Source: a bacterium (GTDB taxonomy: Bacteria; UBA8248). From it: 64,000 nucleotides of DNA. The stretch's first letter is position 1. Each line of letters begins with the position of its first letter. This document shows positions 6,858 to 20,570 of this stretch, in pieces. The stretch covers positions 2,528,001 through 2,592,000 of the forward strand of contig OZ241875.1 in NCBI GenBank assembly GCA_965203325.1. Direction: 5' to 3'. The notes below the pieces were generated by a model. The model did not search any database, was not told the origin of the DNA, and worked only from the letters and a program-made list of their open reading frames with translations. Made by a program: the position numbers and the translations under genes.

Positions 6858-8882
6858 TTGCGCCAGGCGAAGCCCTGGAGAGGAGGATGCCATGACCTGA
6901 AACCTCTTATAGCGACTCAGCGGGTTCGACCCCCGCCCGGCAAAGGCGCAGCCCGTCAGCCGGAAGCGAGTCTTGCATGGCGTGCGGCAACGCGCGTCGT
7001 GAAGCGTAGACAGCAGGTGACGAAGCGGCGGGGGAAGCCTCGAAATCGGTCAATCGATGACGCCTTCATTGTTAACCATGTGGGGGCAGCACCGGAAGCG
7101 CCGCTATCGGCGAGGCGCAACGGGTCGTCCGGGGTCGTGGGCCGGCGCAAAGTCACGGGATGGGTCGCCAGGGAACCTGGGAGATCCTGCTCCTGCCCGT
7201 GGGCAAGGACGCTGGAAAGGGGATGCCAGCATGCAAATCCAGACCCCGGCCCGTCGCCGGGCCTGTACGGCGGCGGGAGCGCCTCATGGCGGACACGAAC
7301 CCGGCAGGCGCCCGCGGAGCCGGTTGGCGAAAACAATAAGCCGAAGGACATGCAAGGGCAGGAAGTCGTAGCGCCCTGATAGTATCGCTGAAGGCGGGGA
7401 ACCGTGGCCATCGGGACCCGCTGGAGGGAAGCGGGGCGTCATCTGTACAGAGCCACTGATGGGAAACGTTGGAGGAAACCCTGAGTTCCACAAACACGTA
7501 CACGAAACAGCAGTGGATAGCCGAACAGGCGAGGGAGCATCCGGAACGGGTGTTCACGTCCCTGCACCACCTCATCGACGGCGAGTGGATGCGCGAAGCG
7601 TACCGCCGCACGCGCAAGGATGGGGCGACGGGCATTGACCGCGTGAGTGCTGCCGACTACGAGAAGGACCTGGAGGCGAATCTTGACGACCTCCTGAGCC
7701 GGATGAAGTCGGGTCGCTACTTTGCGCCGCCGGTGCGTCGGCGCTACATCCCGAAGGCGGACGGCACGAAACGACCGCTTGGCATTCCGACGTTCGAAGA
7801 CAAGGTGGCGCAACGGGCAATCCTGATGCTGCTGGAGCCGATTTACGAGACGGACTTTTTGACGTGCTCGTACGGCTTCCGGCCCGGACGGTCGGCTCAC
7901 GATGCCCTGGACGCACTTCGCACGGGCATCATCGAGCAGCGCCAACGATGGGTGATAGACGCGGATTTGAAAGCGTACTTCGACTCAATCCCGCACACCC
8001 ACCTGCGGTCATTCCTCGACCTGCGGATTAAGGACGGCGTCGTAAGGCGCATGATTGACAAATGGCTGAAAGCGGGGGTGCTCGAAGAGGGCACCGTTCA
8101 CAGGCCGGTCGCCGGTACTCCTCAAGGTGGGGTCATCTCGCCGATGCTCTCGAACATCTTCCTGCACCATGTGCTGGACGAGTGGTTCGAGGAAGTGGCG
8201 AGGCCGCGCCTGCGCGGAAACTGCCAGCTGGTGCGATACGCCGATGACTTTGTCATCGCCTGCGAAGACCGCCACAGCGGCAAGCGATTGCTTAACGTGC
8301 TGGGCAAACGTCTCGGTCGATACGGACTCACGCTCCATGGGGCCAAGACGCGCTACGTGGACTTCCGCCGGAGGCGTCCCTACGGGCGTCACTGGATGGC
8401 GTCGGCCACGACGTTCGACTTCCTCGGCTTCACCCACGCTGGGGGCGGTCGATGCAAGGCAAGGACGTCGTTCGCCAAATCACGGCGAAAGGCCGCTTCG
8501 CCCGCGCGCTGAAATCGGTGCACGAGTGGTGCAAGAGACATCGGCACCTGCCGGTCAAGGCGCAGCATGACTATCTCGTCCGGGTGATACGAGGCCACTG
8601 CGCATATTACGGTCTGACAGGGAACGGCAAGCGTCTTCGGTGGTTCCGCTACCAGGTGGCTCGCACGTGGCGGAAGTGGCTTGCGCGCCGCAGCCGCCTG
8701 CGCCGGATGAACTGGGACCGGATGAACGCGCTTCTCTTGCGATACCCCCTTCCATTTGTCTCGTACGTGCGTTCTCGGCAAAGCTCCTTGAGCGAACCTG
8801 TCAGGTGAGGAACCGAGTGCGTCAATCGCGCACGCTCGGCTCTGTGGGGGGCGGGGCGCAGCGATGCCCCCGCCTACCCGGC
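6858..8882 (+). mobile_element. Group II intron (RT resembles bacterial class E, no endonuclease domain)
   Basis: Domain V/VI at ~8808-8882 (GAGGAACCGAGTGCG...CGCACGCTCGGCTCTG; bulged A8876 seven nt from the end); 5' end TTGCG; internal RT ORF. Confidence 0.85.
7469..8808 (+). pseudogene. ltrA: Group II intron reverse transcriptase/maturase with 1-nt frameshift near 8438
   Basis: RPLGIP, GTPQGGVISP, VRYADD and FDFLGF motifs; maturase domain continues in another frame (8452-8808). Confidence 0.85.
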
Positions 8883-9062: not shown

Positions 9063-9154
9063 TGGCGGAGAGGGAGGGATTCGAACCCCCGGTGCAGTTG
9101 CCTGCACAACAGATTTCGAGTCTGCCGCCTTAAACCGGACTCGGCCACCTCTCC
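9063..9154 (-). tRNA. tRNA-Ser (anticodon CGA)
   Basis: GGAGAGGTGGCCGAG...GCAGA-CTCGAAA-TCTGT, long variable arm, GGTTCGAATCC, 3' CCA encoded. Confidence 0.97.
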
Positions 9155-15088: not shown

Positions 15089-15451
15089 ATGCGCGCCCAA
15101 AAATACAGTTGGGACGAGATGCCCGAGGAGGTCCTGAACGATACCCTGTCGCGGAAGATGGTGGTGGGCGAAAAAGAGATGCTTTGCTGGCTCAAGCTCA
15201 AGCCCGGCTGCGTTGTACCCCTGCACAGCCACGAACACGAGCAGATATCCCATGTTTTACAGGGTAAGCTCCGGTTCCACATCGACGATGAGACCGTGGA
15301 TATCGGGCCGGGCGAAACGCTCCTCATCCCCCCGCACGTCCCCCACTCCGTGGAAGTCGTGGGCGATGAAACGGCGATTGACTACGACATCTTCAGCCCC
15401 ATCCGAGAAGACTGGGTCGACGGGACAGATAATTATCTGAGAGACGGCTAG
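15089..15451 (+). CDS. Cupin domain protein
   Basis: PLHSHEHEQ...IPPHVPH, DIFSPIREDW. Confidence 0.9.
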   Translation: MRAQKYSWDEMPEEVLNDTLSRKMVVGEKEMLCWLKLKPGCVVPLHSHEHEQISHVLQGKLRFHIDDETVDIGPGETLLIPPHVPHSVEVVGDETAIDYDIFSPIREDWVDGTDNYLRDG

Positions 15452-15601
15452 CGGGAAATTTCCGCAGGGCGGCCAGGAGGACAAAGGGTGCAGGGCGCAG
15501 GAGTGGTTCGGACTCGCACCCGGATGCTCCCCGCCCCCGATTTGCCGCCTGGCCAGACAAACACGAATCAAAGAAAAACCCCAAAACGGCGCTTTCTCTC
15601 A

Positions 15602-15809
15602 ATCCCAAGATATTGTATCCACAATTCATCGCAACACTATATATAGAATCTACGTAAATGATTGCTTTATTTGCGCTAATGCGGTTATCCCCATCTGGAT
15701 AACCTGTGGGTAAAATCACCTTTTTAACCCAATATATTGTGCAGTTATACGAAAATATACTATATTTTGTATCAAATTTCTTGACAGACGCGAGGATTCA
15801 GCTTACATT
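15602..15809 (+). promoter_or_regulatory. Sigma70 promoter with two tandem pairs of NrdR-like boxes and four DnaA-like boxes
   Basis: Palindromic cores CAAGATATTG (15606), CTATATATAG (15637), CAATATATTG (15730), CTATATTTTG (15760); 1-mismatch DnaA boxes at 15615, 15685, 15694, 15705; TTGACA (15781)-N17-TACATT (15804). Confidence 0.7.
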
Positions 15810-15812
15810 GTC

Positions 15813-16016
15813 GGGGAAGGGTAGCAGAGCAAAGTCACTTCAGCACGAGTTCAGGTAGGCGCGTCCGCCCCTCATCTTCGCTGGAAAAGCAATTTTTGCA
15901 GGCAAGTCGTCGACGTTTTGCGTGATGATTGGCGGAAGAGTGATCCCTCCGGGCATCGCCTGCCCTTTCCTTCCAGAGGATGCCCCTATCCTACCCAGGG
16001 GCCCCCACGGGGCCCC
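15813..16016 (+). ncRNA. Candidate structured ncRNA, ~185 nt plus 3' hairpin; family not recognised
   Basis: Begins just after the -10 element; 5' GGGAAGGGTAG pairs with 3' CTATCCTACCC; several internal helices; no credible ORF. Confidence 0.6.
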
Positions 16017-16078
16017 ATAAATATGAAAAGCCGGGAAACGAGACCCTGCGCCGGACGCTTGCATGCGCCGTTCAGGAC

Positions 16079-16107
16079 AAAAAAGCCCCCCTCGCCGTGA
16101 GGGGGGC
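16079..16107 (-). terminator. Intrinsic terminator of hflKC
   Basis: GC-rich hairpin followed by a T-tract on the minus strand. Confidence 0.7.
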
Positions 16108-16126
16108 ATTCTTGTTCGTCGCGTAA

Positions 16127-17038
16127 TTACTCGGGTTTCTTCACGTCTTTGTTTACGGAGCCTTGCAGGAAGCGCAGGAAATCACTGCTTGCGGGCAGCA
16201 CGAGAGTCGTCTTGTCCTTGAGCGAGCCCTCATACACCTCCAGGCTCTTCAGGAAGGCGTAGAATTCCTCATCCTGCCCGAACGCCTGGGCGTTGATGTC
16301 GATGCTCTTGGCGTCGCCCTCGCCCTTGATAGTCTGCTCTTTCTCATACGCTTCCGCGAGGAGCACGTCGCGCTCGCGGTTGGTTTCGGCCCGTATCTTC
16401 TCGGCCTGCTCTTTTCCCTCCGAGCGGTACTGGCGGGCGATTCTCTGCCGCTCGGCCCGCATGCGTCCGTAAATGGCCTTCAGGTTCTCGGCGGGCAAAT
16501 CGGCGCGCTTCAAGCGCACGTCCATAATCTGGATGCCGTAGGCGCGCGCTTTCTTGTCGCTTTCTTCTCTGACCTTGGCCATTAACTGCGCGCGTTCTTT
16601 CGCCACGATGTCGATCAAGTCCTTACGGCCGAGCTCCAGGCGCAGTTCACTGTAGATGATGTCGTCGAGGCGGGCCTGCGCCCCGGTCTCGTTGCGCACG
16701 GTGCGCAGAAACTGCAGCGGGTCGATAATGCGCCAGCGCGAGAAGTTGTCCACCACCAGGGATTTCTTGTCCTGCGTGATGATCTCCGTCGGGTTGGAGT
16801 CGTATTCGAGCAGGCGGCGGTCGAAGAACGTGAGTTGTTCCACGAACGGCAGCCGGTAGTGGAGGCCCGCGTCCCGCAAGACACGGACGGGTTTGCCGAA
16901 CCGGGTGACGACCACTTGCCTGTCTTCACGAATCGTGAACAGAAGCGAATTGAGGGCGAATACAACTATCAGGATCAAGACGAACAAGGCGATCGTCTTT
17001 TTGGGCAATTTTCTGGCTCCGGCTTCTTCGGCGCTCAT
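16127..17038 (-). CDS. hflC: FtsH protease modulator HflC
   Basis: N-terminal TM helix, SPFH domain, RMRAERQRIARQYRSEG. Confidence 0.95.
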   Translation of the reverse strand: MSAEEAGARKLPKKTIALFVLILIVVFALNSLLFTIREDRQVVVTRFGKPVRVLRDAGLHYRLPFVEQLTFFDRRLLEYDSNPTEIITQDKKSLVVDNFSRWRIIDPLQFLRTVRNETGAQARLDDIIYSELRLELGRKDLIDIVAKERAQLMAKVREESDKKARAYGIQIMDVRLKRADLPAENLKAIYGRMRAERQRIARQYRSEGKEQAEKIRAETNRERDVLLAEAYEKEQTIKGEGDAKSIDINAQAFGQDEEFYAFLKSLEVYEGSLKDKTTLVLPASSDFLRFLQGSVNKDVKKPE

Positions 17039-18187: not shown

Positions 18188-19156
18188 TCAACCAACCCGA
18201 ATTCGTTTTTGGCGCACTTGGCGCCGGTTTTCCAGGATTTGCCTGCGCGAAGGCAGCCCGCCCTGCGCGCCGTGTTTTCTCACCGAACACGATCCGGCGC
18301 TGACGGCGAAGCGCACCGCTTCTCCAAACGCCGCACCCTCGGCCAGTTTCACTGCCAGCGCGCCGCAAAACGCATCGCCCGCGCCTGTCGTATCCACTGC
18401 CTCGACCTCGGGAGGAGGCCTCATCCAGGAGGCTCCTTCCTCATCCAGGAGAAATGCCCCTTTTTCACCCGCGGTAATGACGACCTGCGAAGGCCCCAAA
18501 TCCCGTAAAGCGCGCGACGCGCGCAGGAACTCCGCATCGGTTTCGGGTATTTCCCCGAGTCCGGCCAGATGCGCCGCCTCGGTTTCGTTGGGTGCGAGCA
18601 CGTCGGTCAGGCGGAGCAATTCATCGGGCAATTCCCCCGCCGCCGGAGCCGGGTTCAGGACGTTGCGGGCGCCGCGCCTTCTTCCTCTTTCGAATGCGGC
18701 CATGCCCGACGCGACCGGAACCTCGAGCTGCGCCAGAACGACGTCGCCGTAATCGAGAAGTCCCACCCTTCTTCTCATTCGCCCGGGCGTGAGAAGCGCG
18801 TTTGAACCGGGGGCCACGGCGATCTGGTTCTCGCCTTTCGCGTCCACCACGATCAGTGCGGCTCCCGTGCTCGCCTTGCAACGCAGTATTCCACCGGACG
18901 ATATCCCGCTCTCCGCCAGGTAGCGGCCATAGGCGTCTCCGCCCGCGTCGTTTCCCAGCATGGTGACGAAACGAACCTCGGCGCCGGCGCGGACGGCCGC
19001 CAGGGCCTGATTCGCCCCTTTGCCTCCCCAGAACTCACGCCGCTCATCCCCCATGACGGTCTCGCCGGCGGAGGGGAGCCTGTCCACGCGAACGACGATG
19101 TCGATGTTCGAACTCCCCAGCACCAAAACGGCGCTCTTTTTATTTTTCATCGTCAT
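18188..19156 (-). CDS. rbsK: Ribokinase
   Basis: GGKGANQA and DTTGAGDAF motifs. Confidence 0.9.
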   Translation of the reverse strand: MTMKNKKSAVLVLGSSNIDIVVRVDRLPSAGETVMGDERREFWGGKGANQALAAVRAGAEVRFVTMLGNDAGGDAYGRYLAESGISSGGILRCKASTGAALIVVDAKGENQIAVAPGSNALLTPGRMRRRVGLLDYGDVVLAQLEVPVASGMAAFERGRRRGARNVLNPAPAAGELPDELLRLTDVLAPNETEAAHLAGLGEIPETDAEFLRASRALRDLGPSQVVITAGEKGAFLLDEEGASWMRPPPEVEAVDTTGAGDAFCGALAVKLAEGAAFGEAVRFAVSAGSCSVRKHGAQGGLPSRRQILENRRQVRQKRIRVG

Positions 19157-20153
19157 CCCATCCGCGATACCTGCGCAGATGCGAGGTGAAAAACGCCAGA
19201 AAACCCTCCACATCCAGGTCCAGGGCCACGTCGACGGGGTTCTTGACCCGTGCGTCCCTGTATTCGCGCAAATCCACCACCGTCATTCCGCGCGCAATGC
19301 CTTTACTTGCGTCCACGTCCACGCGGCAGGGGGCGGTCTCCACCAAATCCGGCTCCATCGCGACGGCCAGCGCCAGGGGATCGTGCAGGGTGATGTCGTC
19401 GGCACCCCGCCGTTTCCGGGAGAACCGCGCGTAGACTTTGATGAGGTCTCTCAGCGCAGCGCGGAACGACCCGCCGCCCCCCAATTCATCGACGCTCATG
19501 AGCGCGCGCCTCGTCACGTCCAGACCCACCATGGTGACGGGCAGACCGGATGAGAACACCTCCTTCGCCGCCAGAGGGTCGCAATAGATGTTGAACTCGG
19601 CCGCAGGCGTTACGTTCCCGGGCATCCGGGCGGCTCCTCCCATGACCACAATCCGCTTCACGCGGGAGAAGACCCCGGGCGCGCGCCGAAGCGCCAGGGC
19701 CAGATTCGTGAGCGGCCCCAGCGTGATGATGGTCAACGCCGAACCCCGCCTTGCAGCCTCCTCGACGATTACCTCCCAGGCCGGTTTCGAACTCCCCCCG
19801 CCCAGGCGGCGCAAGCGCTTGTTGTCGTCGAACATCGCTCCCATGCCCTCGGCCCCGTGAATCATTCGTGATTCGCTCCGGTTCAGGCGGCTCCCGTCCA
19901 GGGCCAGTGAGGCGCCCGGATAAACGGGAACTTCCGGAGCGTGAGGTTCGAGATGATCGCGCAGGAACGAGACGAGCCTCCTCGCGTTCCGGTAGGCCAG
20001 ACGCGCGGAAACGTTGCCGTGCACGGTCGTCACGGCGTCATACCGGAAAAAAGGCGATGCGAAACCCATCGCCAGAGCCAGCGCGTCATCCACGCCCGGG
20101 TCGCAATCCACCAGCGCGTACCGGACCGGCGATTCGCTTTTATTTCCCGTCAT
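19140..20153 (-). CDS. Nucleoside hydrolase (IU-NH family)
   Basis: DCDPGVDDA, GPLTNLA, AEFNIYCDP and LHDP motifs. Confidence 0.92.
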   Translation of the reverse strand: MTGNKSESPVRYALVDCDPGVDDALALAMGFASPFFRYDAVTTVHGNVSARLAYRNARRLVSFLRDHLEPHAPEVPVYPGASLALDGSRLNRSESRMIHGAEGMGAMFDDNKRLRRLGGGSSKPAWEVIVEEAARRGSALTIITLGPLTNLALALRRAPGVFSRVKRIVVMGGAARMPGNVTPAAEFNIYCDPLAAKEVFSSGLPVTMVGLDVTRRALMSVDELGGGGSFRAALRDLIKVYARFSRKRRGADDITLHDPLALAVAMEPDLVETAPCRVDVDASKGIARGMTVVDLREYRDARVKNPVDVALDLDVEGFLAFFTSHLRRYRGWDDDEK

Positions 20154-20570
20154 CACACAAGGCCTCACGCGTTATTGTGAAAATTCGTATCCTATCGTAT
20201 GGACTTCAGGCTTTTTGATGCAAACAACAATGATTTGCCCGGTGATGCAATGTTTCTCACCTCTCAAGATTCGGCCGAGCAAGGCGAAACGAGAGCTTAT
20301 CATTCAATAACGATAAATATATCAATGAGTTAATCTTAACCGCCCGTTATATTTCATAATTTATATTATTGCCCCTTCTTTCACAAAATCAGATAATTCA
20401 TTAAATTTCAATATTTTAGCTGGAATTGCTCCTGCCGATAATTGACAAAGCGCCTGTTTTCATATACTTATGTCTGGTTTATAGAATTTGAGTTGCGCAG
20501 AATTACCCTTAATTACATGGTGCCGCAAATCTTTTGATCTCCACTCGAGAGGCTTCCCCATAACTTAGAA

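Follow-up and report, generated by a model that had tools for sequence, protein, structure and literature searches.

The E. coli nrdAB promoter carries tandem NrdR boxes together with DnaA boxes, and is the obvious point of reference for the locus described here. Clusters of DnaA boxes are also known outside oriC, as in E. coli datA and DARS and in Bacillus subtilis. RsaE and RoxS, finally, are base-pairing small RNAs that mask Shine-Dalgarno sequences with C/U-rich loops. In PMC13584703, the NrdR box is described as having six highly conserved positions (C4, A6, A8, T9, T11 and G13), and NrdR as requiring two boxes 15-16 bp apart. The same paper reports two NrdR box pairs 113 bp apart in the Listeria monocytogenes nrdAB operator, and 14-bp linkers in Thermotoga maritima nrdJ. 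In recent NrdR papers, NrdR figures as a repressor specific to ribonucleotide reductase (RNR) genes; the one other target that has been proposed, topA, is called questionable. Within the text they exposed, full-text literature searches returned no RNA gene under NrdR control.

The host of the present locus is an uncultured genus of sponge-associated Nitrospinota. Its source genome (G000) is a single contig of 4.39 Mb with 60% G+C, and the window, i.e., the whole 64,000-nucleotide stretch of DNA that was analyzed, is G000:C1:2,528,001-2,592,000. Coordinates up to 64,000 refer to the window and larger ones to the genome. The locus occupies a 675-bp gap between a convergent cupin-domain gene and hflC, and is a new, genus-restricted non-coding RNA gene behind an RNR-type NrdR/DnaA operator array. 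The elements that surround the RNA are listed below; box scores come from a matrix trained on this locus and its orthologs and so are circular for these boxes, including that of box D (24.1), the highest in the genome.

15089-15451, plus strand: cupin-domain gene (Cupin_2, E 1.2e-17)
15603-15618, unstranded: NrdR box A, TCCCAAGATATTGTAT, of the distal pair, with the six defining positions; matrix score 17.6; kept in the genus alignment
15615-15623, plus strand: DnaA box GTATCCACA, one mismatch, overlapping NrdR box A; GTATCCACAA is kept in most genus rows
15634-15649, unstranded: NrdR box B, ACACTATATATAGAAT, 31 bp from A (15-bp linker), with the six positions; score 23.7
15685-15693, plus strand: DnaA box TTATCCCCA, one mismatch; not conserved as a box in many relatives
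15694-15713, minus strand: two head-to-tail DnaA boxes (TCTGGATAA and TGTGGGTAA on the plus strand) in the module GGATAACCTGTGGGTAA; kept in all genus rows covering it
15727-15742, unstranded: NrdR box C, ACCCAATATATTGTGC, of the proximal pair, with the six positions; score 21.3
15757-15772, unstranded: NrdR box D, ATACTATATTTTGTAT, 30 bp from C (14-bp linker), with the six positions; score 24.1
15781-15809, plus strand: sigma-70-type promoter TTGACA-17-TACATT (TTGACA at 15781-15786, 17-nt spacer, TACATT at 15804-15809)
16085-16107, unstranded: bidirectional intrinsic terminator common to hflC, where a longer, read-through version of the RNA may end (one RNA contig, from run X8, reaches ~16081)
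16127-17038, minus strand: hflC (Band_7)

Elsewhere in the window there is a match to domains D1-D4 of group II introns (6927-7144, plus strand, 120.8 bits) and an 89-nt tRNA (9066-9154, minus strand). Upstream of hflK/hflC and on the same strand are genes for a pfkB-family kinase and an inosine-uridine nucleoside hydrolase (18188-20168, minus strand; nucleoside salvage).

An earlier note, made from the letters of this DNA alone, had described two tandem pairs of NrdR-like palindromes with start-to-start spacings of 31 and 30 bp, and these are present as stated. In the register xxxCxAxATxTxGxxx, C4, A6, A8, T9, T11 and G13 are present in all four boxes, and the A-B and C-D pairs start 124 bp apart. 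The 15-bp linker between A and B is within the 15-16 bp class; the 14-bp linker between C and D is outside the main class, though this is the length reported for T. maritima nrdJ. When the whole genome was scanned with the matrix for pairs in which both boxes score at least 9 at a spacing of 16-70 bp, three were found against 0.74 expected: two at the locus and one at 3,229,855 and 3,229,886. A literature-style pattern that does not depend on the matrix, CWANATNTWG-N(19-23)-CWANATNTWG, also gave three pairs in G000 and none with the reversed-pattern control; in the phylum as a whole 33 of 51 genomes had matches, the reversed control giving zero in every genome. The NrdR box array, its conservation and its non-random occurrence at this locus are thus real and not due to chance. 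G000 does have nrdR: its single ATP-cone match (497,985-498,236) falls in a 162-aa frame.

How does this array compare with known NrdR operators? Like the promoters of E. coli nrdAB and of the organism's own nrdJ, it has 16-bp boxes in pairs about three helical turns apart with DnaA boxes upstream. Like that of Listeria nrdAB it has two pairs (here 124 bp apart), and like that of Thermotoga nrdJ it has one 14-bp linker. Unlike all of these, which control RNR genes or operons, its product is a non-coding RNA. The earlier note had accordingly called the promoter an orphan, and rightly so: the boxes are not in an RNR-operon promoter, the only Ribonuc_red_lgC gene of the genome being nrdJ at 3.73 Mb (3,732,240-3,734,984), 1.19 Mb away. 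A further difference is that the proximal pair lies upstream of the -35 hexamer, box D ending 8 bp before it.

NrdR box pairs were also seen at other sites. The third pair of G000 (G000:C1:3229855-3230174, outside the window) has its boxes 31 bp apart and precedes a 73-codon ORF with a strong Shine-Dalgarno sequence, which is followed by a 679-codon EF-G-like gene; the pair there is kept in 23/23 genus genomes. Another genome, G038, has five box pairs in total, one with TTATCCACA between its two boxes, and in its locus L129:1500-2792 two pairs ~270 bp apart precede an N6/N4 DNA methylase gene. In G015, contig C18 contains nine copies of a near-identical 43-bp word matching the box-pair pattern; such a pattern suggests the end of a repeated or mobile element more than it does an operator.

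The four one-mismatch DnaA boxes of the earlier note (15615-15623, 15685-15693, 15694-15702 and 15705-15713) were all recovered. Four in 300 bp is the genome maximum (there are 544 such boxes genome-wide) compared to an expectation of 0.037 per 300 bp; the next densest 300-bp clusters, with three boxes each, are the nrdJ promoter and the region upstream of dnaA. Between two and four TTATCCACA-like 9-mers (at most one mismatch) are found in the 22 genus rows that cover the array, and none in the contig-truncated G002 row. The array is AT-rich. That the locus might simply be oriC, a possibility that the earlier note had referred to GC skew, was rejected: the cumulative skew minimum (~2.30 Mb) and dnaA (2,315,030-2,315,944) are ~229 kb from the locus (2,543,600). 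Like datA, DARS and the B. subtilis clusters, the locus has its DnaA boxes away from oriC, in a gap free of genes and at no great distance from the origin; here, in contrast to those clusters, the boxes are combined with NrdR operators and a promoter.

The near-consensus promoter was confirmed, matching at 10 of 12 positions, and its TTGACA is at the conserved place in 19 of 23 genus genomes. It uses the same -35 and -10 words as the promoter of nrdJ, the only RNR gene in G000 (class II; a 1205-codon open frame on the minus strand with a GTG start at 3,734,984; no NRDD match, indicative of NrdD, was found in this genome). The region upstream of nrdJ contains a perfect TTATCCACA, the module GGATAACGTGTGGGTAA, NrdR-like boxes, TTGACAGACG and TACATT, a layout that is kept in the aligned upstream regions of 22 genus genomes, the divergent G015 row excepted. 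The locus and nrdJ promoters thus both carry TTGACAGACG, TACATT, a GGATAAC.TGTGGGTAA module and NrdR boxes; GGATAAC.TGTGGGTAA occurs at these two places only in the genome, and the relaxed form of GGATAACGTGTGGGTAA likewise occurs in only two places. Because this promoter kit is common to both, we view the locus as repeating the regulatory architecture of nrdJ in a more elaborate form. The arrangement is not identical: the C/D pair is upstream of the -35 and not over the promoter, whereas the NrdR boxes of nrdJ overlap the -10. In the nrdJ leader (G000:C1:3735020-3735050) there is a further genus-conserved NrdR-like box (ATACTAAATATG...), 33 bp past the one that overlaps the -10. A promoter-like site on the minus strand of the locus (15787-15759) was discarded, being the mere reverse of conserved plus-strand elements and having no RNA contig on its product.

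What lies downstream of the promoter is a conserved, structured RNA with the following features.

15813-16017, plus strand: non-coding RNA of ~205 nt, supported by RNA contigs, consensus fold and segment conservation; conservation stops at 16017
15819-15824 with 15986-15991: helix P1
15858-15860 with 15867-15869: helix P2
15875-15882 with 15931-15939: helix P3
15951-15962 with 15974-15985: helix P4
15963-15973, plus strand: CU-rich loop of P4, CCCUUUCCUUC, the proposed pairing seed; 10 of 11 columns invariant in 17 species
15998-16006 with 16009-16016: helix P5

The consensus fold has 40 pairs in seven helices, and 97.3% of the cells are paired versus 43-56% when the partners are slid. Much of the structure that the earlier note had drawn by eye reappears in it: it contains CATCTTCGCT/GGCGGAAGAGTG as a helix, GGGCATC/GATGCCC as a hairpin, and the closing stem, which is however shorter than proposed (15819-15824/15986-15991 in place of 15814-15824/15986-15996). 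A motif said to recur at 15824 and 15898 does occur twice in G000 but its first copy is not conserved among species, and it is probably no feature. Folded as a single sequence the RNA has a z-score of -2.23, with 3 of 200 shuffles folding equally well. The homologs that the earlier note had recommended collecting were found, and compensatory change among them is modest: it affects 4 of the 40 pairs (10 cells), all in central helices, as counted on a structure derived from the same sequences. P1, P4 and P5 barely vary and hence say little about covariation either way; in one species (G019) a C-G pair of hairpin P5 is changed to U-A.

Conservation is uneven along the RNA. In 17 species the mean pairwise identity is 0.73 for the 5' part (15814-15944) and 0.93 for the 3' domain (15945-16017), in which 59 of 73 columns are invariant. 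For the same species, the values are 0.51 and 0.57 for the flanking spacers, 0.90 and 0.71 for the coding ends of the cupin gene and hflC, and 0.83 for the array. The invariant single strands are CU-rich, namely the P4 loop CCCUUUCCUUC and the junction UCCCUCC. An Rfam search (Rfam 15), also suggested in the earlier note, matched no family either at the gathering score or with E allowed to reach 10; what it listed was terminator-like and miRNA noise. The 6S RNA family (RF00013) was specifically rejected: even with E up to 10 its model does not match the locus, and the canonical member is elsewhere in the genome (G000 3,212,560-3,212,742, 80.6 bits). The RNA is single-copy, and a REP-like repeat was also rejected as the double palindrome of P5 is unique in the genome. 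No U-tail follows P5, AUAAAUAU being found instead; a U-tailed terminator is 70 nt further on. The RNA thus resembles RsaE and RoxS in having its own promoter, stable hairpins and conserved CU-rich single strands but has no sequence relation to them, and its 3' hairpin, unlike theirs, is without a U-tail.

The RNA is expressed. The earlier note had called for transcript data, and RNA-library contigs cover the predicted transcript in each of four sponge metatranscriptome runs, which come from four studies. These contigs (157-226 nt) extend from ~15812-15847 to ~15991-15997, or on to ~16040 or ~16081.

X1 contig, 187 nt: ~15812 to 15997
X2 contig, 216 nt: ~15827 to 16040
X8 contig 1, 157 nt, depth 269: ends near 15994, running into adapter-like letters
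X8 contig 2, 226 nt, depth 94: reaches ~16081
X9 contig, 168 nt: ~15828 to 15995

The left border is at most a few bases away from the start that the -10 hexamer predicts. No contig fell on 15456-15811, which includes the box array, in any of the four runs, so that the locus has a built-in silent stretch. In X8 one RNA contig reached a depth of 269 as against 4-57 for contigs of the flanking genes, these depths being whole-contig means. The right borders cluster just before P5, an all-G/C hairpin, and may mark a true 3' end or reflect a cDNA or assembly effect. Metatranscriptome contigs carry neither strand nor true RNA ends.

In the genomes searched, the array and the RNA are both confined to the genus but do not have the same distribution within it. 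BLAST found the region in all 22 genus relatives and in none of 38 other genomes. A covariance model of the 3' core (R1) gave strong matches (E <=1.2e-9) in 18 of 51 phylum genomes, one per genome and all at the locus; these 18 all belong to the genus and all served as training sequences, and beyond the genus no match was better than E 0.012. Scanning species genomes for exact motifs yielded 16 hits, each at one of the same genus loci; of 48 pattern hits in a metagenome scan two were true homologs, the other 46 being without the hairpin partner and the boxes. At nine hflC loci from four other genera there was neither an NrdR box nor a DnaA cluster. Within the genus, the box array is kept in 23/23 genomes, whereas R1 finds nothing in G001, G006, G008 and G015 and only a match of E = 0.7 at the G009 locus. 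The first four of these genomes retain the array with neither the canonical -35 nor the RNA core. Shortened RNAs also occur: that of G019, about 90 nt long, has promoter and P4 stem in common with the full-length form, and G009 and G008 have other shortened forms. The CU-rich stretches persist in the shortened variants of all three.

Since the array is found without canonical promoter or RNA core in 4 of 23 genomes, the RNA is not the sole reason that the boxes are kept, and the array may have a role without it. This persistence is the main complication. Could the conserved entity be chiefly the DNA, an origin-proximal DnaA/NrdR hub with a titration or regulatory function like that of datA, DARS or the Bacillus clusters, and the RNA a lineage-specific add-on or by-product? 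The presence of the array in every genus genome, with the canonical -35 missing in four and the RNA core in four to five, fits such a hub, as does the case of G001, which has all four six-position boxes but only ~70 nt left before the hflC terminator. So do the DnaA boxes, whose cluster is the densest in the genome and exceeds the three boxes upstream of dnaA itself, and the location of the locus 155-281 kb from dnaA in five of the six complete genomes (155, 187, 217, 281 and 718 kb in those other than G000, the 718 kb being in G020). However, in species that have the RNA, its 3' domain exceeds the array in conservation (0.93 versus 0.83), and the RNA is transcribed, and the closeness to dnaA may merely reflect the common gene order of a single genus. 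On this evidence we think it unlikely that the DNA is the main object of conservation, and favor an RNA gene with an operator array.

The lack of strand information in the contigs leaves room for the abundant RNA to be the minus strand, i.e., a processed 3' tail of hflKC read-through transcripts to which the plus-strand promoter would be irrelevant; the end of hflC is only 110 nt away and the terminator is bidirectional. This is most improbable, because an uninterrupted bridge from hflC to the RNA across 16040-16113 is absent in all four runs and coverage there is zero in three of them, and because the left border of the contigs (~15812-15831) is 3-20 nt past the conserved -10, a position with no minus-strand end mark.

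The earlier note had seen no protein gene downstream of the promoter, and our search for a conserved reading frame bears this out. The best candidate, which runs through the 3' domain and would specify a proline-rich peptide (...PGIACPFLPEDAPIPPRGPHGAP), is open in 15 of 17 species, so the transcript might be thought a small-protein mRNA or a dual-function RNA. Its third positions are indeed slightly more variable (7/24) than its first (2/24) or second (5/24). Nevertheless, 17 of 24 third positions never vary, unlike those of the neighbor genes in the same species (variable third positions: hflC 13/16, cupin gene 8/16), a pattern that implies constraint on the nucleotides themselves. Moreover, the start codon differs between clades and none of the starts is preceded by a Shine-Dalgarno sequence; in G021 and G018 the frame is broken by a 2-nt insertion, while G020, G013 and G010 have one extra nucleotide in the P5 loop that shifts its C-terminus; and three RNA contigs stop at ~15991-15997, inside the frame. 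A coding function consequently has very little to recommend it. Equally hard to credit is the idea of an nrdJ promoter duplicate in decay, which has lost its gene and makes a neutral transcript: the common promoter kit and the shortening or loss of the RNA body in several species would fit this, but 59 of 73 invariant 3'-domain columns in 17 species, next to spacers that are ~50% identical, do not, and apart from short words the RNA does not resemble the nrdJ leader.

None of the four refuting outcomes that the earlier note had named (a known RNA family, no transcript, no covarying homologs, oriC) was obtained, and its interpretation is supported in part. We consider it probable, therefore, that the locus is an NrdR/DnaA-controlled riboregulator gene specifying an RNA of ~200 nt with CU-rich loops. 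The control by NrdR and DnaA and the action in trans, which the earlier note had also envisaged, are what we infer, with good motive, from the layout. The dNTP sensor of the cell would thus probably also control an RNA regulator. When dATP is plentiful, NrdR would sit on the box pairs and hold the promoter down; upon dNTP shortage, or a change in DnaA occupancy, the RNA would be made together with the reductase. It would then act in trans, its invariant 3' domain offering CU-rich, anti-Shine-Dalgarno-like single strands that could pair with the ribosome-binding regions of target mRNAs. Masking of ribosome-binding sites is proposed because the invariant single strands are CU-rich.

A second RNA of this general type is present elsewhere in the phylum. 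In Nitrospinota family f4, a conserved structured RNA of ~300 nt with a long closing helix is found downstream of a TTGACA promoter that has a tandem NrdR pair. It is found in five of the seven genomes of the family, far from their RNR genes (loci L124:1589-1880, L126:1580-1885 and L153-L157), and has no Rfam match. In an alignment of five sequences (A2), 19 of 98 predicted pairs show compensatory change. The two RNAs are alike in being standalone structured RNAs behind a tandem NrdR pair and TTGACA; they have no sequence similarity (the f4 RNA matched in 0/23 genus genomes), and that of f4 is larger and has far stronger covariation.

If such RNAs are real members of the NrdR regulon, then they would pass on the state of dNTP supply and of replication to other pathways at the post-transcriptional level, a link for which we found no description in the portions of the literature that the searches covered. 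That the operator array is kept without the RNA in some species raises a separate question: do NrdR/DnaA sites serve as chromosomal sinks? A more far-reaching reading combines these points into a two-layer checkpoint, in which an origin-proximal NrdR and DnaA hub gates a riboregulator that masks ribosome-binding sites, with pyrG as candidate target. The RNA would then be the first RNA output of the NrdR regulon, and the placing of standalone structured RNAs under NrdR a phylum-wide habit of Nitrospinota. We put this forward tentatively, as a somewhat doubtful composite.

Targets were sought by predicted pairing. An exact-complement word search gave many hits, none of them decisive. When the P4 loop was scanned for duplexes against 11,661 start regions, called crudely and with a mean energy of -16.7 kcal/mol (sd 4.7), pyrG (CTP synthase) was fourth at -35.2, a rank within chance as about one gene at this energy is expected. 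At the pyrG site (G000:C1:3418275-3418340) the GTG start and the end of the upstream gene overlap; of the biologically plausible matches to the CU-rich loop, this site is the best. When each species' own loop was paired with its own pyrG region, 15 of 17 species reached -28 kcal/mol or better, the weaker two being G014 and G020; a C-to-U change in the G002 loop faces a G-to-A change in the mRNA, making one possible compensatory pair. Conservation of this site is to be expected in any case because the stretch encodes the end of the upstream gene plus a Shine-Dalgarno sequence. We accordingly list pyrG, on the strength of predicted pairing, as a candidate target, a lead and not a result. The nrdJ leader was rejected as a target: its -47.3 kcal/mol in G000 is only in the top ~2-3% of a 1,500-region background, and the pairing is not conserved in relatives. 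Other top duplexes involved genes resembling those for diadenylate cyclase (1,921,642) and lysozyme (1,636,430).
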